From the IMG/VR virus record IMGVR_UViG_3300045988_154391: a stretch of 64,000 nt of DNA; one strand, written 5' to 3'. Within the stretch, counting starts at the first letter, position 1. Every line of letters starts with the position of its first letter. This DNA comes from a virus. Its lineage: Duplodnaviria; Heunggongvirae; Uroviricota; Caudoviricetes. A program made the position numbers and the translations under genes. The notes under the pieces are model-generated. The model saw only the letters and a list, made by a program, of their open reading frames with translations, made no database searches and was not told the origin of the DNA. Shown piece after piece: positions 2,394 to 38,343 of this stretch.

Positions 2394-3878
2394 TCATTCA
2401 TTAAGCCATGCCAGAGCTTCATCAACCTGCGCTTCGTCTTCGACGCTAAGCACTTCATCCTGGGGAACATAATCCGCCAGCATAGCGAAACAATATGTAT
2501 CCCAATGGTCTGGTGAGTGCAGGTTGAGTTTTTTCTTCATATCCTCCTTACTCATCACCTTCCATTGACCTGCGGAGTTAATCCCTACAGGGATTTTCGA
2601 CGCTTCCTCAATAGTTTCATTACCCTTATCCAGTCTCATACGACCAGATTTTACGGCCTCTGCGGCTTGAACGTTGGCATAAGCACGTTTATCAAAGTAC
2701 AGGCTCTTATCTTCACGGCTATGCATCTTTTTACCCCAGCGTATACGCTGTACGGTAATACCATAATACTCGTACATCAGATCCGCCGTTGCTTTACCCA
2801 GCCCATCACCGTCTATCGCTATGGTGATATTTGGAAATCGCTCAGGATTACATTCTGCGAAAATTTTGGCGGCAAGCTGCGTTTCTGTAACGTCTGTGTA
2901 TTCCAGCATTCGATAGTTGATTACACGGCGTTTATTTCTCTGGCCGGACACCATCATGATATTGATAACGGACTTATCCCGTCCCGTACCACCAGCAACG
3001 TCCACACATGCAAGCCAGCCCCATCCTTTGGCAATCTTGACTTTCCGCCGCGTCGCACGTTCAACCTCATCACGTCCAAGAAGGAAGCCATCCTGTGATT
3101 TAGGGAATAGTCCGCGTACCTTAATCATGTACATAGGGTTATCACGCCCGCCGTACTCCGCCAGCTTCATTTTGATAAATGCTGGCGTTACCAGCGGTGA
3201 TTCCTCACTGTTAAGCGTGATCGCCGTATAAACGCCATCAGGGTTACCAGGACGCTTGGCCAGTTTATGGTGAGTATCGTAGAAATAGCCGCTTGGGCGT
3301 GTAGGCTGTGACAGTAATAAGATGCGGTTATCCTGTCCGGTAAGAGCACCGGTGATGATACCGAAAGCTCTATCACTGACACCGGAGGCTTCATCGATAA
3401 TATACAGAAGATGATCTGCGTGTTCACCGGCGAGAGCTTCTTCACTTCCCAGACGAAAGCCCTTCGGTACTACAGTCCATACACCTTTACCAGTAACCTC
3501 ATAGAAAGCGGTTTCTGTCAGAACAAAATAATCAGCAAGCCATGGAAAACGGCTGGTGGCAGTAGCCCAGTTTATCTTGATGTACTTGAATATACCGGTC
3601 ATTACCTGCTGAATTTTGTTCGCAACGATAATGGCGCGGGCACCGGGATACATGATTATGAACAACATGATCATGATAGAAGTCATGTCTGATTTCCCGG
3701 TACCGTGACCAGACGAAACAGATGTCTTGCTACCCTGTTCCTGCACAGACTCAATAATCAGATCCTGCTGCCAGGTAGGTGTTTTGCCGAACAAAACATC
3801 AGCGGCAGCAATCCAGTCATAACGATATAGCGCCACCAGCTCGCGCCAACGTGGATCCGTTACGCAACTTCTGGCCAT
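2394..3878 (-). CDS. pacB: Terminase large subunit (PacB-like)
   Basis: 494 aa; Walker A-like SGHGTGKS; sits directly after pacA with a 1-nt overlap; size matches what I recall for P1 PacB. Confidence 0.75.
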
Positions 3879-5071
3879 TAATCATCATCCCCGTATAGCT
3901 TGCGGGTAACTTCTTCGTCTTCCTCCTCGTCTTCGTCCAGGTCTTGTTCCAGCCATGGGTCGTTTGATACACCTTCAGTATCAACATCTCCATAACCGCC
4001 TGTATCAACGATATCGGCGATTTCTTCCCTACGCTGCTCAATCCACAATGCGGCATCGGCGCGGCGGTTGGCGGCCCGTTCTCGCGCAACTTTGTCCAGA
4101 TCTTCAAGAGAAGGGCCACCGACGGCTGTTTGCCTTTCCTCATCATCGGTATTGGTCTTAGGAGCACGCAGATCGGCTTTGATTTGCTCCAGCATCAGGG
4201 GCGGCACTTTTCCGCCATGCGCCTCGATGAATTCAGCTGCTTCCAGCACTGACCAGTTATTTTCACGCTTTCGTTCGTATGCCAGCTTAACAATGCCAGC
4301 TTGCCCCATAGATAAAGCGTGCTTTTCCGCCTCCCGGCTTTCTTTTCGATAGTTATTCCGAATGCTGTAAATGGTGTTGATCAGGCTGCTTATCTGCGCG
4401 GAACAGCTGTTTAGCATGCTCGCGATACGATATTCAGGCGGAGTCCCTTCATCATCGTCTTTTTGCTGATCGCGCATTTCCTGCACCAGACGAATACACG
4501 TATCCCTGGCGTTCTCCAGCATAAGGAGATGAGAAAGAGACTTTTCCAGAAGAGTGGTTTCCAGAACATCGGCCCCGGACCGACGCAACATAGCGCGCGC
4601 GGCCTTCCGCGCTTCAACGTTATCTATCAGGTAATCGCCAGCTTCGAATTCAAAGCGTTCACCATCATCATCCAGGGTGTCGCGTTCCAGGCGATCACGT
4701 AAGGTCCGGTGGGCGCGGGTGATCACGTCATGATCATCAGAACGATCATTTATGCGCTTATTTTGGCGCTTCGCATTCTCGACTGCGGCACTGACAACGG
4801 CATTAACCCTTTGTTTTTCCGCTATTTCAGCCGCAATGTGATCACCTGCATGTTGATCATTAGAGTGATCAATGATCATGCTTTTTAGTGGCTTCCTGAC
4901 TGGCTTATTTGGCTTGCGGCTGTCCGCTGTCCTGGTGTCTTCTTTGAAGGCACGGAGATAACGACGTGCAGTATTAGGGTTAAGATTAAACTCGGCGGCA
5001 TACTGTGCGATGGTGTAACCACCATCTCGCGCCAGGCGAGCAAAATTCTTCTTGTGATCGTCCCAGGTCAC
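3878..5071 (-). CDS. pacA: Terminase small / pac-recognition subunit (PacA-like)
   Basis: 397 aa; N-terminal HTH-like segment; acidic C-terminus; contains the GATC-hexamer pac site. Confidence 0.7.
4690..4880. other. pac packaging site: two clusters of four GATC-containing hexamers about 95 bp apart
   Basis: GATC at 4693, 4721, 4732, 4744 and at 4840, 4855, 4867, 4874, mostly as TGATCA/C/T; matches the Dam-regulated P1 pac architecture inside pacA. Confidence 0.6.
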
Positions 5072-5156
5072 TTATGCTTCCTTTCGTAAAAACTCTTTTT
5101 GACGCGAGGGTAACGAAAGTCACATGTCAAAAGGCCCGGAACGGGCAAGCAATCAA

Positions 5157-5609
5157 TCAGATACGTGCGGATGTGGCATTACCGTAATGACGGTGCTGAC
5201 GGGCCACCTTATTGAAAAGTTGACGCGCCATTACCCAAGGCTGGTGCTCCCGGCGTTCCTTTTCGTCCTGCGTCATATAGAGTTCGTTCTGGAGTTTTTC
5301 ATCAAACCGGCGCGGAGCGCGGCTACGGCGAAAGAATTCAGGATTCAGAGAGTGGATCTGAAATCTACGTGGGCGTGTACTGTCATCAATCAAAACAGAC
5401 GAATACTTAGACACAGCGATAGCCTTTAAGCGCAGATAAACATCGCGCTTATCGACATCCAGATGCGGGTATTCCTTTTCAAGAATTGCTGCGAGTTCTT
5501 TCGCTGATAGAAGAGATTTAGTGCGGATCATGTAATCCGCAATCTCGTACGATGTTATTCGTGAGTGATTTATTTCCATGAAGTGGCGTCCCTGCCAGTT
5601 AAGTAACAT
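5157..5609 (-). CDS. Hypothetical protein in the position of P1 lpa (late promoter activator)
   Basis: 150-aa ORF directly upstream of pacA with an operator-like site just upstream; call is from synteny only. Confidence 0.35.
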   Translation of the reverse strand: MLLNWQGRHFMEINHSRITSYEIADYMIRTKSLLSAKELAAILEKEYPHLDVDKRDVYLRLKAIAVSKYSSVLIDDSTRPRRFQIHSLNPEFFRRSRAPRRFDEKLQNELYMTQDEKERREHQPWVMARQLFNKVARQHRHYGNATSARI

Positions 5610-9043: not shown

Positions 9044-9965
9044 GGTCCACCTCATGCTTTTCAGCCACCAGCGGCAATAAAGCCCTGGCCATCTTATGAA
9101 CCAATAGTGCATCAATAATGCCAAGCGTATGCCCCGGCTTAATGTTTAATGCCGCCTCAAGGTGACACCTTTCCAGGTCACTTTTCTCGGCTTGTTTATG
9201 ATGATCTGGTGTAATAACGTCGCCCAAAACACGGCTAATTCTTTCTCGTAATTGCTGGGTGCCAGCACACTTGATCGCTGTATCGTGGAGACGGTTAACC
9301 AGTTCGCGATAAACATGCGGCTTAATGCGGATACGTTCACCGGTGACGCCCTTTCCTGGCGCTGGCACCGAACTATCCGGAATATCCGGATAGTTGCCAG
9401 CCTCGTAAGCTACCCACAGCCAGTGCATGAATGTTTCAGTGGACACACAACCACAGTCCACATCGATTTTCCCGCGTTGCTGTTCCAGCCATTGCCCAAA
9501 ATCCAACCTGTAAGTCTTACTTTCAAGTTCATCACCATTGAACTCGACTTTCTGCGACGCTATGAGAGCTGATTCGTATTGTTCGCGAGTGACAACTGAC
9601 TGGTATTCATCGCTATCAAGGCCACCAATTGGAAGCTCAATCTCACAACAAAAATTGCGCCCAAAGAAAGTGTCTTTTTTGTGGTCTGAGCCAAAAGCAA
9701 AAGTCGCGCATGGTGCCATTAAATTGACACTGGGTAGGTAACAATAACTCATTCCATCAGGCCACCCGCCGCACTTAGGCAGCTCCTTCACTAACAAGTC
9801 GATAAACTTCATTTTTTTATCATCTTTGCAAGCCGCCAAAGCCATTTGGGCAAGTGCCAATACTTCATCTGCCGTATATCCAGCACCGTGACCATACATT
9901 TCGATACGGGAAATAATCTCTGATATACGCTCTTCAGTGATTCTGGTCATTTCTTTTTGCGCCAT
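9027..9965 (-). CDS. Hypothetical protein
   Basis: 312-aa ORF in the co-directional leftward block. Confidence 0.5.
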   Translation of the reverse strand: MAQKEMTRITEERISEIISRIEMYGHGAGYTADEVLALAQMALAACKDDKKMKFIDLLVKELPKCGGWPDGMSYCYLPSVNLMAPCATFAFGSDHKKDTFFGRNFCCEIELPIGGLDSDEYQSVVTREQYESALIASQKVEFNGDELESKTYRLDFGQWLEQQRGKIDVDCGCVSTETFMHWLWVAYEAGNYPDIPDSSVPAPGKGVTGERIRIKPHVYRELVNRLHDTAIKCAGTQQLRERISRVLGDVITPDHHKQAEKSDLERCHLEAALNIKPGHTLGIIDALLVHKMARALLPLVAEKHEVDHANES

Positions 9966-10321
9966 TTCTTTTCACATTCCTTAGTCCATTTTTCAATGTT
10001 CATTTTGGCAATATCAGTCATTCCATCACCTAAGAAATACTTTTTCCGGTACGTCTTGCACTTAAACCACACTACAACAGCCACCAGCCAGAAAATAAAA
10101 GGCCATACGGCAATACCAACTCCAGCCGCGATAAAGCCCAATATCCATAAATGAAGCTCTCCAACTTCTGTTTCCGGCAATATTCTTAAAGAATTAAACA
10201 GCAGGCTGAACGAATGGTCGTATGCATTGGCAGTATAAGACATGCAATCCATATAATTAAAGTCATAGCCTGCGGCTGCCGCCCATAATGGGCGGTCAAG
10301 AAAATGTTTTAGTGTCATCAT
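9947..10321 (-). CDS. Hypothetical membrane protein
   Basis: 124 aa; hydrophobic core FIAAGVGIAVWPFIFWLVAVVVWF; lysine-rich C-terminus. Confidence 0.45.
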   Translation of the reverse strand: MMTLKHFLDRPLWAAAAGYDFNYMDCMSYTANAYDHSFSLLFNSLRILPETEVGELHLWILGFIAAGVGIAVWPFIFWLVAVVVWFKCKTYRKKYFLGDGMTDIAKMNIEKWTKECEKKWRKKK

Positions 10322-10327
10322 ATTAAT

Positions 10328-10621
10328 TTAAGGTTCAGACCAGTTATCTTCAATAGCAATGCTTAATCTTTGTAGCCATTCTGCTAATTTCAGCATTGCT
10401 TCTCTTTCGCTTAAACCACACGGAAAATCATCAAGCGATATTGTTGGCTTGAAGTTTCCCAAATTATCCATTTCAACGGTCAGATTTTGCTCCAGAACGG
10501 TATTTCTTACGCGGCTATTGTGCCGAAGCAAATATACTGAACGTGATTTATTGGTTTTGTGGTCGAACGTATATTCGGTAAGTATCATCTGACTTCCGCC
10601 ATGATTATTACCGCGCCACAT
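10328..10621 (-). CDS. Hypothetical protein
   Basis: 97-aa ORF in the operon-like array. Confidence 0.4.
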   Translation of the reverse strand: MWRGNNHGGSQMILTEYTFDHKTNKSRSVYLLRHNSRVRNTVLEQNLTVEMDNLGNFKPTISLDDFPCGLSEREAMLKLAEWLQRLSIAIEDNWSEP

Positions 10622-10644
10622 AATTACTCCGTGTTAATTGAAAT

Positions 10645-10926
10645 TTAGCTATTAATCTTCACTTTTATCGCGTACACCTTTACCGGTTTATCACCGAAGT
10701 GTGGATGTGTGATTGTTTTTATTTCATATCCGTTATACGGGACGTCAATTCTGCGACTGAAGTCTTCGCGCTTCGGATATCCCTTTGTGATAATCAGGCG
10801 GTCATACTCGCGGAACATAATTCGCTTATTCCAGTAGTCATTACACAGGCGATACTCTTCCGTTTTCTCTCCGCGAATCATGGCATCGAAGTATTCACCT
10901 TTAACGGCAAGTTGCAGGTTAGCCAC
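10645..10926 (-). CDS. Small ASCH/PUA-like domain protein (putative)
   Basis: 93 aa; YFDAMIRGEKTEEYR resembles the ASCH N-terminal signature. Confidence 0.4.
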   Translation of the reverse strand: MANLQLAVKGEYFDAMIRGEKTEEYRLCNDYWNKRIMFREYDRLIITKGYPKREDFSRRIDVPYNGYEIKTITHPHFGDKPVKVYAIKVKINS

Positions 10927-11206
10927 GACCTTCCTCCTTTGGCTTGTGAATTTGTATCGTCATGCCGCTTTGAGTGGTGACTACAACGACAGAACCAGGC
11001 TGAAGACTGTTAAGATTGAATGCTTCGTAAAACGAAGCCAAGGCCAGCGCTTTTTTATTCTTTCGGTTCCACCAACGCCATCCATTGCTACAGGCTACAC
11101 TGACAATCCACTGTCCACTCCTGTAAGCCATATAAAACCAGATGAGCAAAACCTGAATGAATGCTATCCAGTCAATAATCGTATATTTCGCGAAGGAGAC
11201 CATCAA
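10919..11206 (-). CDS. Small membrane protein, paralogue of ORF 12804..13127
   Basis: 95 aa; one hydrophobic helix then a conserved ...A..FYEAF.L....PG... domain; 4-nt overlap with the preceding Ea22-like gene. Confidence 0.45.
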   Translation of the reverse strand: MMVSFAKYTIIDWIAFIQVLLIWFYMAYRSGQWIVSVACSNGWRWWNRKNKKALALASFYEAFNLNSLQPGSVVVVTTQSGMTIQIHKPKEEGRG

Positions 11207-11775
11207 TTAACCTCCTGCGGCGGTTCCGGTAGAGGCATCCAGTACAAGGCGTTCCCTAACCACGATAAAGTGCCGTCGCTCAACTCCACGTATTCCCCTT
11301 GTACCTGTCCTGCCATATACTCGCCGTGCTTTGAATAAATTAAAATCCAATCATCTTGAGCGGGCATTCGCTCACTACAGCTTATCCAACCATCCGGAGT
11401 TACCGGATAGTTGCCCGACAGCTCGTTCAACTTGTAAGTTTGGCTTACAGGTTCGGCTTCCAGTTCTGCAATGCGCTTCTCTGCAGCTTCCAGCTCAACG
11501 CGCAGCTTCCCTACCGTTAGCGCAATTTCCTCGTTCTCCTGGTCGCGGCGTTTGATGTATTGCTGGTTTCTTTCCCGTTCATCCAGCAGCGCCAGCACGG
11601 TTTCTGGTCCGGTCAGAAATTTGAAGGCGTTGAGCGCATCAATATCCACACCGTAATCCTTAAGTTCCTGTTCACTTAACAAATCATCATCAACTGGCAA
11701 CATTAACAGGCGTTCCATTGCCGGAATTGCACGTTCTGCCGCCTCACGCAGTGCCTGATAGTTAATTTTGGTCAT
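11203..11775 (-). CDS. Ead/Ea22-like protein with C-terminal DUF551-like domain
   Basis: 190 aa; N-terminal INYQALREAAERA; coiled-coil AELEAE; C-terminal WISCSERMP...WMPLPEPP. Confidence 0.55.
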   Translation of the reverse strand: MTKINYQALREAAERAIPAMERLLMLPVDDDLLSEQELKDYGVDIDALNAFKFLTGPETVLALLDERERNQQYIKRRDQENEEIALTVGKLRVELEAAEKRIAELEAEPVSQTYKLNELSGNYPVTPDGWISCSERMPAQDDWILIYSKHGEYMAGQVQGEYVELSDGTLSWLGNALYWMPLPEPPQEVN

Positions 11776-11776
11776 A

Positions 11777-12076
11777 TCACATCCTCCTGAAGCCGTTGCA
11801 TTTACGTAAAAAATCGCAGATATAGCCCTTCATTTTTTCGTGCCAATCTCGATCATTCCCATTGCACCAACCATCAGGTGGAGTCCAGTTTTCTATCAGA
11901 GCAGCCATTTTCTTTGCTTTCGCCGGAGTAGCTGTTGCGGTATCGCAGTAATGACGAGTGTCAACCAACGTATCCATACCATCGATATCAAGTACGCAAA
12001 ACCATGTGTGATTCGGCATTTCAACAGATGGTATTTGTTGCCCACGTCGACGTTTATCAATAAGACATACAGTCAC
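11777..12076 (-). CDS. Hypothetical protein
   Basis: 99-aa ORF, tightly packed between two Ea22-like genes. Confidence 0.4.
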   Translation of the reverse strand: MTVCLIDKRRRGQQIPSVEMPNHTWFCVLDIDGMDTLVDTRHYCDTATATPAKAKKMAALIENWTPPDGWCNGNDRDWHEKMKGYICDFLRKCNGFRRM

Positions 12077-12807
12077 TGGTTGCCTCCTTTGCGAAGCTGG
12101 GCAGCAAAGTCAACTAACCACTCAGTCATTTCAACCTTCCCTACCAGGTCTGAACCAGGGTGCATACAGCAATCACTCTGCGCCGCTTTGAAATCCTTAT
12201 ACTCATATTCTTGGGCCACCAGATTTTTTGCAGCTTCTATAGCAGCATCCACGCCCTGCGCCCGCACTTCAGCCAGGAAAGCATCGGTGGCTGGCATATT
12301 TCCTGTTGCCTTCATGGCCTCCAAAATAACCAGAACGCCATCTCGCCCAACCACCTCAGCGATAACCTCAGTGTTGTCGCCAACAACATCGCAGAATGCC
12401 TGAACTGCCTTACGAGCCAGCTCATTCTCCACTGCCAGCGCCGTGCGATTACCCTCCAGCTCTGCAATGCGCTGTTTTGCGGCATCCAGTTCAATCGACA
12501 ATTTTTCCAACTGCTCTTGATGCTTCTTGTATTCCTGATATGCGTGCCAAGACTGACCTTTGCGCACACTATCAGTGATATCAGTAATCTGTTCTGGTGT
12601 TAGCGTGGTCAGTGGCTGTGATGGGAAAATAAGCACTTTCCCGGAATCCCAATCAAAACCAGCGTGAATTGACTGAACCTCAACTGAAGGTGTTGAACCA
12701 ATGCTGCCAGGCGAATGAACAACGATTGTTACATCCATATCGCGACGATGGCTGTGGTTGTTGGACAAAATACGATTCACCAACTCAGAAAATTTGGAAA
12801 ATTTCAT
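12073..12807 (-). CDS. Ea22-like paralogue
   Basis: 244 aa; coiled-coil AAKQRIAELEGNRTALAVENELARKA; shares ATDAFLAE(I/V)RA with ORF 13091..13966. Confidence 0.5.
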   Translation of the reverse strand: MKFSKFSELVNRILSNNHSHRRDMDVTIVVHSPGSIGSTPSVEVQSIHAGFDWDSGKVLIFPSQPLTTLTPEQITDITDSVRKGQSWHAYQEYKKHQEQLEKLSIELDAAKQRIAELEGNRTALAVENELARKAVQAFCDVVGDNTEVIAEVVGRDGVLVILEAMKATGNMPATDAFLAEVRAQGVDAAIEAAKNLVAQEYEYKDFKAAQSDCCMHPGSDLVGKVEMTEWLVDFAAQLRKGGNQ

Positions 12808-13127
12808 GCTGATTCCCCTTTCTCTGCTCTCTCCTGTCGGAACATCACTATCATCAGGTCGCCTTTTGTCGCTATCCTGGCTGTTGTACCTGGTTCAATG
12901 CGGCTAAGCTCAAATGCGTCATAGAACGCTTCTAATGCCTTCTGGCGTAGTTCCTGTTTGCGCCGTTTTTTCCACTGTTTTAGGAAAATGGAACCCAGCC
13001 ATCGCCATGTGCGGGACATGATGTAAAGCCAACCGAGAAGTGCCAGACCGGTATTTAGGAGCGTATCGATCGTTATTGTCGTGTCGATATTCACTGGCTG
13101 CTTCCTTTGCGAATCTGTTCCGCCCAT
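12804..13127 (-). CDS. Small membrane protein, paralogue of ORF 10919..11206
   Basis: 107 aa; hydrophobic helix then ALEAFYDAFELSRIEPGTTARIATKGDLMIVMF; overlaps the 3' end of the preceding Ea22-like gene by 37 nt. Confidence 0.45.
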   Translation of the reverse strand: MGGTDSQRKQPVNIDTTITIDTLLNTGLALLGWLYIMSRTWRWLGSIFLKQWKKRRKQELRQKALEAFYDAFELSRIEPGTTARIATKGDLMIVMFRQERAEKGESA

Positions 13128-13966
13128 TCTTCAAGGGATTTCTCCGCATATTCACCAGACAGGCCATCAATCGGATGCGCTTCATTAGCCAACTCTTCTT
13201 TCGCTGACAAAATCATGCGTGTAACGTCGAAAACTTCACGCAAAGACTTATTGATAAATCCGTGATTGAACGCAGCAGCAAGACGGCTGGCGGTATAGTT
13301 AATCCCCTCGTTGCGTGCTTCCGCACGAATTTCAGACAGGAAAGCATCGGTGGCTGGGGTTTCGACATTAGGTCGAAGCTCATAATCACAAACTCTTTCA
13401 ATCCATGGTGATACTCTGTCGCATTTCCTCTTCTTGCGTTCACCGACCTTGGTTGCCTGCTGAATAATTACCCCCCAGCAAATGCTTTCGACCTCTTCGC
13501 TCCATCCATCGCAAGCATCGCCTCTATAGTCGTCAATTGCAGCCTCAGCAGCAGCGATAGCCTCCTCAGCAGTTTTGTGACACTCGAAACTAAATTCAGA
13601 GCCATATGAGAAATACATAGCCCCGGCCTTCAGCGCCGCATTCTCCGCTGCCAGCGCCGCGAGATTAGTCTCAAGCTCTGCAATTCGACACATAGCATCA
13701 ATATTTGTGTCCTCCAGGCGCTTAATTTCACCAAGCAGCTCCAGTGCAACCTTTGGGTTGAACGCGGCAACATAACGAGCGTTGTTCTCTGCATTTTTCT
13801 GTCCATCAAAGCCGGTCCATTTGATAACGTCTTCACATCGTTCATCACCGGGCGTGTGCACCGCATAAGTACCAGTATCCGTCGAAATAAATGCGACCCA
13901 TTCGTCTGGTGTTGCCTTTTCTGCCGCCTCACGCAGTACCTGATAGTCAATTGTCATTCTCGCCAT
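13091..13966 (-). CDS. Ead/Ea22-like protein
   Basis: 291 aa; N-terminal DYQVLREAAEKATPDEWV; coiled-coil RIAELETNLAALAAENAALKA. Confidence 0.55.
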   Translation of the reverse strand: MARMTIDYQVLREAAEKATPDEWVAFISTDTGTYAVHTPGDERCEDVIKWTGFDGQKNAENNARYVAAFNPKVALELLGEIKRLEDTNIDAMCRIAELETNLAALAAENAALKAGAMYFSYGSEFSFECHKTAEEAIAAAEAAIDDYRGDACDGWSEEVESICWGVIIQQATKVGERKKRKCDRVSPWIERVCDYELRPNVETPATDAFLSEIRAEARNEGINYTASRLAAAFNHGFINKSLREVFDVTRMILSAKEELANEAHPIDGLSGEYAEKSLEEWAEQIRKGSSQ

Positions 13967-14598
13967 CCTTCACAGTTGTAATCACTACAGCCTTCAAAAT
14001 CATATGGGCTGTACTGCCAGGTTATTTTTCCGCAATGCGGACAATTCCAACGCACCTTCCCGCTTCGCGACTTCTTTCTTCTGTTTTGCTTTTTCAACCA
14101 GTCAGGCATGACCAAACCTGCGCCCTGAACCATTGTTCTGCGGTTAAAGTTATTGATATTGAACGTCCGGCGCTTTGCTGCATCAGCAATGGAAAATGGC
14201 AACCAAACTATTCCTGGTTCGTTTTTGTTGGCGACGCTAAAGATGGTCGCTTTACTGAAGTCATCTGTTGGCAATCCACCGTGTTGAAGCCAGTAAACAT
14301 CGTTGCCGTTCCAGCTACCTTTTTTGTAGGCCACATACGCAGTGCAATCTGACTCAATCAGGCTTTCTGTAGGGATGTACTGGCAATCAACGTGCCACAC
14401 AGCCATTGCATCCACGCTATCAGCGCAAACAGGCTGATCGATATCTCGTCCACAATTCCAGGCTTTTTGGGCTGCTTCCAGCGTGTAAACATGAGCGCGA
14501 TCGATATCAGAACTGTAACCATTGCCGTTATGGCAATGGAATGAGGCGTTATTACCCACAGTTTCACGCAAGCACATCATGTAAAAGCGGTTATTCAC
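13954..14598 (-). CDS. Hypothetical protein with C-terminal Cys-rich zinc-ribbon-like motif
   Basis: 214 aa; CPHCG...C..YNC near the C-terminus. Confidence 0.45.
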   Translation of the reverse strand: MNNRFYMMCLRETVGNNASFHCHNGNGYSSDIDRAHVYTLEAAQKAWNCGRDIDQPVCADSVDAMAVWHVDCQYIPTESLIESDCTAYVAYKKGSWNGNDVYWLQHGGLPTDDFSKATIFSVANKNEPGIVWLPFSIADAAKRRTFNINNFNRRTMVQGAGLVMPDWLKKQNRRKKSRSGKVRWNCPHCGKITWQYSPYDFEGCSDYNCEGWRE

Positions 14599-32149: not shown

Positions 32150-34728
32150 ATAGCCATAACGTCATGAGCAACACCACGAGTGTCTCCCTTACAAGACACA
32201 GAACGTCTGGCAAAGAGAGGTTCCACTCTGAAGCCTCTGTCCTGATAAAGTTCTCTGACGTTTGGCGCGCCACTGTTAGTAATGAGTACCTTTGCACCTC
32301 GGCGATGAGCATCCGTCAACAGAGACACCAGGCGTTTTTGCTCTTCAAACTTAAAGTCATGACCGGAATAGTTCGTGAACCCCTCTGTATTGGGGAGCGG
32401 TTCATACGGCGGATCGCAAAAGATGACATCTCCTTCTCCGGCAGCTTCAATCACTGCTGCAAAATCACCGCATACAAACTCAGACCGCCCTTCCGCACCG
32501 AGGAAGGCTTCCATCTCCTGTAATGGGAAATACGGAGTTTTATACTTCCCATAACCGACATTGAACTCACCGGCCTGGTTGTAGCGCGTCAATCCGTTAA
32601 AACAATGACGGTTCAGGAACAAAAACGCCGCTGCGCGATGTAAATCATCATAGACTTGTTTGTTAAACGCATTCCGTACTGCCAAGTATCCCTCCTGGGT
32701 GTTGTAGTCCAGGAAAAAACGATGTGCCAGAGTGATAAGTGAATGCTCCTCGCGTTGCAGAGTCTTGTAAAAGTTAATCAGGTCAGCATTCACATCATTT
32801 AGCAGATTTTCCTGGTATCCGGCATTCATGAAGACAGCTCCGCCACCGACGAAAGGTTCAATCAGGCGCTTCCCTTCTGGCAAATAGCGAAAGATTTGTT
32901 CCAGAACACCAAATTTTCCACCGGCCCATTTGAATATGGACCGTTCGAATTCTGCCGCTGGTTTAACTTTTCGCTCTTTTGTTTCACTTCCTTCTTTCTG
33001 CCGACATACGGCCTTAGTAATCCGATCGCCAATCCAGCGCATTACTGGTATTGCCATACTATTGCCGATCGCTTTGTAACGCGGTCCGTCAGCTGCAAGC
33101 ATCGCGGCCTCTTCTTCGCTTAAATCTGGATAGTGATTGCGAAGATATGCCAGTTCATCTGAATTAACTTTTTTACGCTTTTCCGTCGGGATCAACGTAT
33201 GCCCATCAGGAAAACCTTGAAGTCTCTCACATTCGACAGGGGTAAGACGGCGAACACTCATCATATGAGGTAAGTAACCATTCTCACCTAATTCGCCTTT
33301 TTCAATACTTTTCTGCCCCCCAAAAGATAACGCAACGGCGTCAGCTGTAGCGCGGGAATCAAGAGTAAAACTTATCTCTTTTTGCCACCCTTTACCTTGC
33401 GGTCCAGCATCATCTTTTCGCCCAATTTGTGCATGTTGTAGCGAATACGCAACAGCTGGTGGGCAGCCTGCATTTGGATTGCTATTAACAGAATTACCTG
33501 ATCGTAAAGTCGGAGAACATTCAATAGAAACATCTTGTCCATAATCTTTGCAGGAAAAAGCTACAACTGCATTTTCTTGACCATGGTTACGACCAATAGT
33601 ATGTGCCAATTCACAATTAACATCAGGATCTTGTGTTCCATGAATAGCCATCACCGCCAGATGTTCGTGACTTTCTTGTGATCTGGCACGAAGAGTGCCT
33701 GCACCTTCACGCCAACTACCAGCACCAGTACTACTGAAAACAGCTAAATCGGTTGCATCTTTAAAATCTCTGGCCTTGACAGTAGAAGCAGTCTCATCAT
33801 CAGCATATTCGCCAAATGCAACCATTCGATAAGCACCAACAAGCCCACTTCCGCGCTGCGCAAAAATCTCTTGGTTACTTGCACCGATTCCGCCAGTATT
33901 GTGTGACTGGTTAAGTGTCGGGTGAGGATTTACAGGGTTATCCCAATGGCTCCCGCTTTTAATGCCATTTCCAACATTTCCGGCAACTTCCTTCCCCTCG
34001 CCTCTGCTCGGCGCAATATTCCGGCGCACGCCTTCGAACTCAAAAAGTACCGTTGCGGGATCGAGGTCTGTTCGAGCACTTGCGACAACAAACACGCGTC
34101 GGCGTCGTTGTGCCACTCCGAAGTATTGGGCATCAAGGATTCTCCAGGCCACCTTTCGCTGCGGTCCATAAATACAACCACACTGCGGCCACTTTGGAAC
34201 ATGGCAACCGGTTTTGCCATCCCACCGCCAGAACGCGTTGCTTTTTCCTGATTCAGGTCGATCACCTGGTTCAAATGGCACATCTTCTCCAGCCAATCCG
34301 GCAAGGAAACATCCGAAGGCGTTATCTGCCGATGACAAGACTCCTGGGACATTTTCCCAGACGATAACGGCTGGTTTGAGAAATGACTCAGCCCGTTTGT
34401 CGTCAATTGCATTTGCAAGCTCCACATACTTTAAAGTTAGCGCGCCACGCTCATCATCAAGCCCACCACGTAATCCCGCGATACTGAATGCCTGACAAGG
34501 TGTTCCCCCGACGAGCACATCAGGGGATTCGATTTCCCCAGCCAGGACTTTTTTGGCAAGTTTTGTCATGTCGCCAAGGTTGGCGACATGGGGCCAGCGG
34601 TGCGCAAGAACGGCAGATGGAAAAGGCTCGATTTCAGCAAACCACGCCGGACGCATACCCAACGGTTCCCAGGCAATACTCGCGGCTTCAATTCCACTGC
34701 AAACAGATCCATAGCACAGCTCTTTCAC
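32140..34728 (-). CDS. dmt: Fused DNA methyltransferase: N-terminal C5-cytosine domain plus C-terminal Dam-like N6-adenine domain
   Basis: 862 aa; C5 motifs [27 protein letters not shown]; C-terminal FKWAGGK and DPPYEP. Confidence 0.85.
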
Positions 34729-38232: not shown

Positions 38233-38303
38233 TTATCCACAGCATAGATCCAATAAACAGATCCTAAAGAGAACCCAGGAAGATCCAAAGAAGATCCCGG
38301 ATC
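38233..38303. other. Plasmid origin region: consensus DnaA box plus five clustered GATC sites
   Basis: TTATCCACA at 38233-38241; GATC at 38247, 38260, 38282, 38293, 38300, mostly in AGATCC heptamers. Confidence 0.6.
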
Positions 38304-38343
38304 GCTGTAAGCCGCGCCATTTCTGGCCTGAAATGGGATCAAC

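Follow-up and report, generated by a model that had tools for sequence, protein, structure and literature searches.

A probable P1-type pac site within pacA of a P1-like plasmid-prophage and the conservation of its TGATCA/G hexamers

Does the dense run of GATC sequences inside the pacA gene of this phage DNA constitute the site from which headful packaging starts, and, if so, how does it compare with the pac site of phage P1? The DNA analysed, referred to below as the window, is a single stretch of 64,000 nucleotides. In the passages of PMC10028697 that define the site, which cite Sternberg and Coulby (1987, 1988) and Skorupski et al. (1994), P1 pac is a 161-bp segment (161 to 162 bp minimal) within pacA that contains seven Dam-site hexamers of the form TGATCA/G, in clusters called HEX4 and HEX3, and also has a site for IHF and, at its center, the cleavage site. 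Judged against that definition, positions 4720 to 4878 of the window, in the 5′ third of pacA, are very probably where a plasmid-prophage of the P1-like group (Punavirus, RCS47-type) has its pac site.

The full listing of GATC positions in the window gives eight between 4468 and 5056, at 4693, 4721, 4732, and 4744 and at 4840, 4855, 4867, and 4874, and there are no further GATC sequences in that interval. Every one of the eight is part of a TGATCA or TGATCG hexamer on the sense (minus) strand of pacA, and all eight lie at codons 65 to 127 of the open reading frame at 3878 to 5071 (minus strand), so the placement of the cluster inside pacA by the initial annotation was correct. The elements of the site, including those placed by reference to P1, are as follows.

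4720 to 4878, minus strand: equivalent of the minimal pac site, with seven TGATCA/G hexamers (4 + 3) around a 90-bp spacer; pacA nucleotides 194 to 352, codons 65 to 118
4839 to 4878, minus strand: HEX4, the pacA-proximal cluster, with TGATCA at 4873 to 4878, 4866 to 4871, 4854 to 4859, and 4839 to 4844; pacA nucleotides 194 to 233
4720 to 4748, minus strand: HEX3, a tight trio, with TGATCG at 4743 to 4748 and TGATCA at 4731 to 4736 and 4720 to 4725; pacA nucleotides 324 to 352
4692 to 4697, minus strand: eighth hexamer, TGATCG, 22 bp past HEX3, beyond the limits of the minimal pac site as published; pacA nucleotides 375 to 380
4787 to 4796, no strand assigned: homolog of the P1 primary pac cleavage region (P1 annotation 90804 to 90813, gap-free alignment), identical in sequence to P1
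4804 to 4816, minus strand: homolog of the IHF-binding site, AAACAAAGGGTTA (P1 annotation 90784 to 90796, transferred by alignment)

The end points of the minimal site in the window were set by the span of the hexamers. Counted between its outermost hexamer bases, this span is 159 bp, which fits the published 161-bp, seven-hexamer site, and it is because of this length, together with the 4 + 3 arrangement of hexamers, that 4720 to 4878 is equated with the minimal site. The spacer between the two clusters (4749 to 4838) is 90 bp long, or 96 bp when counted from GATC start to GATC start, in agreement with the roughly 95 bp proposed initially. The same annotation had described eight hexamers in two groups of four that match the layout in P1. 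Eight hexamers are indeed present, as they are in P1, and the window does match P1, but the distal group consists of a trio and a separated eighth hexamer, and the published minimal pac site is built as 4 + 3, not 4 + 4. The eighth hexamer (4692 to 4697) is without a documented role.

Alignment to the P1 pac site, the check that had been suggested for this reading, was free of gaps. The 271 bp around pac are 99.3% identical to P1 (AF234172, positions 90680 to 90950), and the two differences, AGA to AGG at 4808 and TCA to TCT at 4739, are both at synonymous third-codon positions outside the hexamers. Because there are no gaps, the cleavage and IHF annotations of P1 can be transferred to 4787 to 4796 and 4804 to 4816, the offset being the L001 coordinate plus 3149. 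The cleavage homolog lies no more than 2 bp from the center of the spacer, and in P1 the upper- and lower-strand cuts are spread over approximately 10 bp (P1 record annotation, AF234172). The sole difference from P1 in the IHF site, that at 4808, falls within the degenerate NNNN of WATCAANNNNTTR. A scan of the window with the IHF consensus found 69 matches with one mismatch, compared with 73 expected, so that the motif alone does not exceed chance; the scan carries no information of its own, and the call is based on homology to the P1 annotation. Thus, the interval between the two clusters holds both an IHF site and, near its middle, a cleavage region, each placed by homology only. With its identity to P1 and its retention of the eight hexamers, the cleavage positions, and the IHF site, the segment bears out the original proposal of a Dam-sensitive pac site of the P1 type.

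The same segment is 98.2% identical to that of P7 and 95 to 97% identical to those of RCS47, SJ46, and phiW39; it is 100% identical in many P1-like plasmids of Escherichia coli and Salmonella and is present in 570 plasmid records. All eight hexamers are invariant among seven aligned sequences (the window, P1, P7, RCS47, SJ46, phiW39, and 673R5). In relation to the pac site annotated for P1 (AF234172/NC_005856), the site in the window has the same place in pacA, the same hexamers, the same spacer length, and the same cleavage-region sequence, and differs in the two synonymous substitutions, one of them at the degenerate IHF position. There is no difference of substance from P7, RCS47, SJ46, phiW39, and hundreds of other P1-like phage-plasmids. 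The feature is thus the already known textbook pac site of P1, in one more copy on a P1-like plasmid, and it does not open a new question in itself.

Headful packaging sites of other phages offer a wider comparison. In SPP1 (pacL-pacC-pacR) and P22, pac is located in or beside the gene for the small terminase subunit, which is the same logic as in the P1-type site, and in SPP1 the cut site is centrally placed between two binding regions, with the DNA bent. We know of no sequence relationship between either of these sites and P1-type pac, nor of GATC hexamers or control by adenine methylation in either.

The genes that would act upon the site are found in the window, one of them at a distance.

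3878 to 5071, minus strand: pacA, small (recognition) subunit of the pacase, 397 amino acids, with pac at codons 65 to 127
2394 to 3878, minus strand: pacB, large (nuclease/ATPase) subunit of the pacase, 494 amino acids, in length and position as P1 pacB
5107 to 5125, minus strand: late promoter LPpac (−10 and −22 elements), which drives pacA-pacB, from the P1 annotation by alignment
5157 to 5609, minus strand: lpa, activator of late promoters that is needed for LPpac (Pfam BPP1_LPA, E = 3e-57)
32140 to 34728, minus strand: dmt, bifunctional DNA methyltransferase, 862 amino acids, intact

PacA is 96.7% identical at the amino acid level to P1 PacA and 99.2% identical to RCS47 PacA; its match to an N-terminal helix-turn-helix (HTH) is weak and below the Pfam cutoff. 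The start of pacB overlaps the stop of pacA, so pac is in the 5′ third of pacA and upstream of pacB. The 111 bp upstream of pacA, which include LPpac, are identical to P1. Dmt contains an N-terminal C5-cytosine methyltransferase domain (PF00145, E = 4e-36) and a C-terminal D12 (Dam-class) N6-adenine methyltransferase domain (PF02086, E = 2e-56), and its C-terminal 373 amino acids are 97% identical to P1 Dmt. By its domains, dmt gives the phage a GATC methylase of its own. The prerequisites for control by methylation are therefore present in the form of a GATC in every hexamer and a Dam-class domain in dmt. It had also been suggested that the pac architecture strengthens a link between dmt and packaging. 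The window sequence does not bear this out: dmt is 27 kb from pac, and the link comes from published experiments with P1. Overall, the window has intact copies of pacA, pacB, lpa, LPpac, and dmt and thus provides a cognate pacase under an Lpa-dependent promoter, and no sequence features that speak against a P1-type pac site were found in the window.

For binding, bending, dependence on methylation, and the positions of the cuts, we draw upon the P1 literature, by analogy with which the site would work as follows. Late in lytic growth, Lpa would activate LPpac, leading to production of PacA and PacB. The pacase would then bind both clusters of TGATCA/G hexamers, provided that the adenines of the GATC sequences had been methylated by host Dam or by phage Dmt, and IHF (with HU) would bend the 90-bp spacer such that the two clusters are brought together. 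Staggered cuts covering roughly one turn of the helix would be made midway along the spacer (approximately 4787 to 4796 in the window), after which the cut end would enter a prohead and successive headfuls would be packaged from the concatemer in one direction, which we take to be toward pacB, c1, and lox and hence toward lower window coordinates. Unmethylated or hemimethylated pac would be left uncut, so that cutting would be limited to fully methylated copies. For annotation, the value of the site is that it fixes the expected start of headful packaging and hence the neighboring genes that belong to the first headful. The element carries a complete packaging module of the P1 type, which is relevant to transduction and to the spread of P1-like resistance plasmids.

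Variation among pacA alleles indicates how strongly the hexamers are retained. We compared 84 copies of pacA, taken from P1, the window, and contigs of IMG/VR and of genomes; these represent 66 distinct alleles, and the IMG/VR relatives found are all 97 to 100% identical and serve for allele statistics rather than for depth. Across the 66 alleles, 182 of the 1,194 sites of pacA are variable. Within the pac segment, only 3 of the 48 hexamer positions vary, compared with 41 of the 139 remaining positions (Fisher P = 7e-4), and variation at third-codon positions affects 1 of 16 inside the hexamers versus 30% gene-wide. The HEX3 hexamers and three of the four hexamers of HEX4 are invariant in 66 of 66 alleles. 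The fourth hexamer of HEX4 (4839 to 4844) is TGATCA in 63 alleles, TGATCG in 2, and TAATCA in 1, and the eighth hexamer is kept in 65 of 66 alleles, the remaining one having AGATCG.

Cronobacter phage JK004 and three D6-like plasmids of Salmonella, with PacA proteins approximately 70% identical to that of the window, have hexamers at pacA nucleotides 202, 214, 229, 325, 337, and 348, exactly as in the window, and the same spacing between the clusters. The peptide encoded across HEX4 is largely different in these relatives, a 12-residue stretch being replaced by NDQKRDQKKRDQ, with no change in hexamer coordinates. Differences from P1 are found toward the outside of the site: the hexamer at nucleotide 195 is missing or moved to 176, and that at nucleotide 376 is replaced by GATC sites at nucleotides 365 and 391. 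Taken together, these alignments show selection on the hexamers at the level of DNA rather than of protein. On the same comparative grounds, the conserved core is a set of six hexamers, and the periphery, including the eighth hexamer, is variable. The Salmonella D6-like plasmids also have an extra TGATCA in the middle of the spacer (pacA nucleotides 275 to 280), at a position homologous to the center of P1 cleavage; this hexamer is absent from P1, the window, and JK004.

A conserved site need not be a site in use, and the element could be a defective plasmid-prophage in which pac is present as an unused relic. The window shows just 64 kb of the element, inducibility has not been characterized for many P1-like plasmids (the segment is carried by the 570 plasmid records noted above), and some relatives have a disrupted pacA. 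One example is phage vB_EcoM-673R5, in which pacA is annotated in two pieces (Pac1 and Pac2) and a 1-bp deletion is located just downstream of the eighth hexamer, reflecting either a frameshifted gene or a sequencing error. However, every component of the packaging module listed above is intact in the window, and purifying selection on the hexamers across 66 alleles is unexpected for a site that is generally unused. We consider a relic very unlikely, and a functional P1-type pac site remains the preferred reading.

The concentration of GATC at pac also exceeds what would be expected by chance. It is the densest 190-bp cluster of GATC in the 64-kb window, and when the 256 GATC sequences of the window were placed uniformly over 64 kb, at least 8 fell within some 190-bp stretch in only 55 of 20,000 trials. 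The flanking bases are distinctive as well, with the TGATCR context accounting for 29% of the GATC sequences of the window versus all eight at pac, and 6 of the 31 TGATCA hexamers of the window fall inside one 261-bp stretch at pac (binomial P = 3e-9). At the other extreme, the stretch from 9277 to 14435 has just 2 GATC sequences in approximately 5.1 kb, where the average density of the window would give about 20. Its open reading frames are Ead/Ea22-like or unannotated, and P1-like phages vary in this part of the window.

Clusters of this kind could have a regulatory role. Closely spaced hemimethylated GATC sequences are the kind of target to which SeqA binds, and the only other dense cluster of GATC in the window, the runner-up in density with 6 sites over 94 bp (38247 to 38340), matches the Dam sites of oriR, the origin of the plasmid. 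The cluster in pacA might by this reasoning be mainly a SeqA/Dam-sensitive element for sequestration or for the timing of pacA-pacB expression, rather than a recognition site for the terminase. We regard this as highly improbable, given that the P1 cleavage termini map within the spacer, that the hexamer is specifically TGATCA/G, the context of a minority of GATC sequences in the window, and that binding of the pacase has been assigned to the TGATCA/G hexamers (PMC10028697). Recognition by the pacase, which we favor as the primary role, and regulation by SeqA and Dam are not mutually exclusive, and the latter may be an added function.

The contribution of the protein sequence to the cluster was estimated by synonymous recoding of PacA residues 64 to 128. 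The codon table came from the pacA and pacB genes, a choice that makes the test conservative with respect to selection at the DNA level. The recoded sequences contained a mean of 3.75 TGATCR hexamers, and 8 were reached in 0.045% of 20,000 trials (P = 4.5e-4); the mean number of GATC sequences was 5.15 per 195 bp, versus a window background of approximately 0.75 per 190 bp. That the cluster is a by-product, lacking any function as DNA, of a PacA peptide with runs of Asp-His, Asp-Gln, and Asp-Arg dipeptides is scarcely credible and was rejected on the comparative data and a published synonymous mutant: the local peptide does favor GATC, as this mean indicates, but recoding rarely yields eight TGATCR hexamers, the hexamers keep identical coordinates in JK004 and Salmonella where the peptide changes, third-codon positions within them vary far less than those of the gene as a whole, and synonymous mutation of the hexamers reduces the titer of P1 approximately 9-fold (PMC10028697).

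The arrangement extends to PacA proteins much more distant than these. A scan of genome contigs for distant PacA homologs yielded 6 loci, and the distant relatives described here come from tblastn searches against plasmids. Homologs with approximately 26 to 35% identity are found on phage-plasmids of approximately 85 to 95 kb and on a 177-kb megaplasmid of Xenorhabdus bovienii. Most of them have a TGATCA cluster at approximately nucleotides 140 to 260 of pacA and a smaller one 100 to 150 bp downstream. The numbers of hexamers differ by lineage, being 3 + 2 in three Xenorhabdus species, about 6 + 3 in Serratia, and 7 at a 12-bp pitch plus 2 in Pantoea, and the clusters are smaller in Enterobacter kobei and one Citrobacter lineage. 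We examined 12 diverged loci, JK004 and one Salmonella plasmid among them, whose PacA is approximately 26 to 71% identical to that of the window; in 9 of these, nucleotides 140 to 400 of pacA are enriched for TGATCA (binomial P < 0.02). Enrichment is weak in a Citrobacter/Leclercia lineage and absent over the same nucleotides in an E. coli group annotated as “DNA pacase A subunit.”

From these comparisons, there is perhaps an even chance that the two-cluster TGATCA design goes back to the ancestor of PacA-type terminases in the phage-plasmids of Enterobacterales and is shared by the whole family, in which hexamer number could vary freely. Were this so, the seven-hexamer minimal site would represent one setting of a tunable, methylation-gated switch, and the eighth hexamer of P1 (4692 to 4697 in the window) would be an auxiliary or reserve site. 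Both the core of six with its changeable flanking hexamers and the TGATCA clustering of remote PacA homologs may already have been described. What is added to the established picture is modest: conservation of the hexamers at the DNA level, reaching relatives with approximately 30% PacA identity, and a distinction between the core of six and the variable outer ones.

With respect to the element as a whole, the first 25 kb of the window aligns with RCS47 over 83% of its length at 97.7% identity, and repA and oriR are only approximately 76% identical to P1 and are of the RepFIB type, as in RCS47-like relatives. No loxP was found in the 64-kb window with up to 3 mismatches allowed. By sequence, the element resembles the RCS47-type relatives of P1 rather than P1 itself, from which it differs in its replicon and in its longer Dmt. 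The latter has 862 amino acids, compared with 754 in P1, and its N-terminal 354 residues are 81% identical in a gapped alignment. The window also contains a gene for tRNA-Ser(tga) at 30803 to 30889 (minus strand), which is a fourth tRNA gene beside the Asn, Thr, and Met(cat) tRNA genes common to P1; ARAGORN finds three tRNAs only in the corresponding segment of P1.
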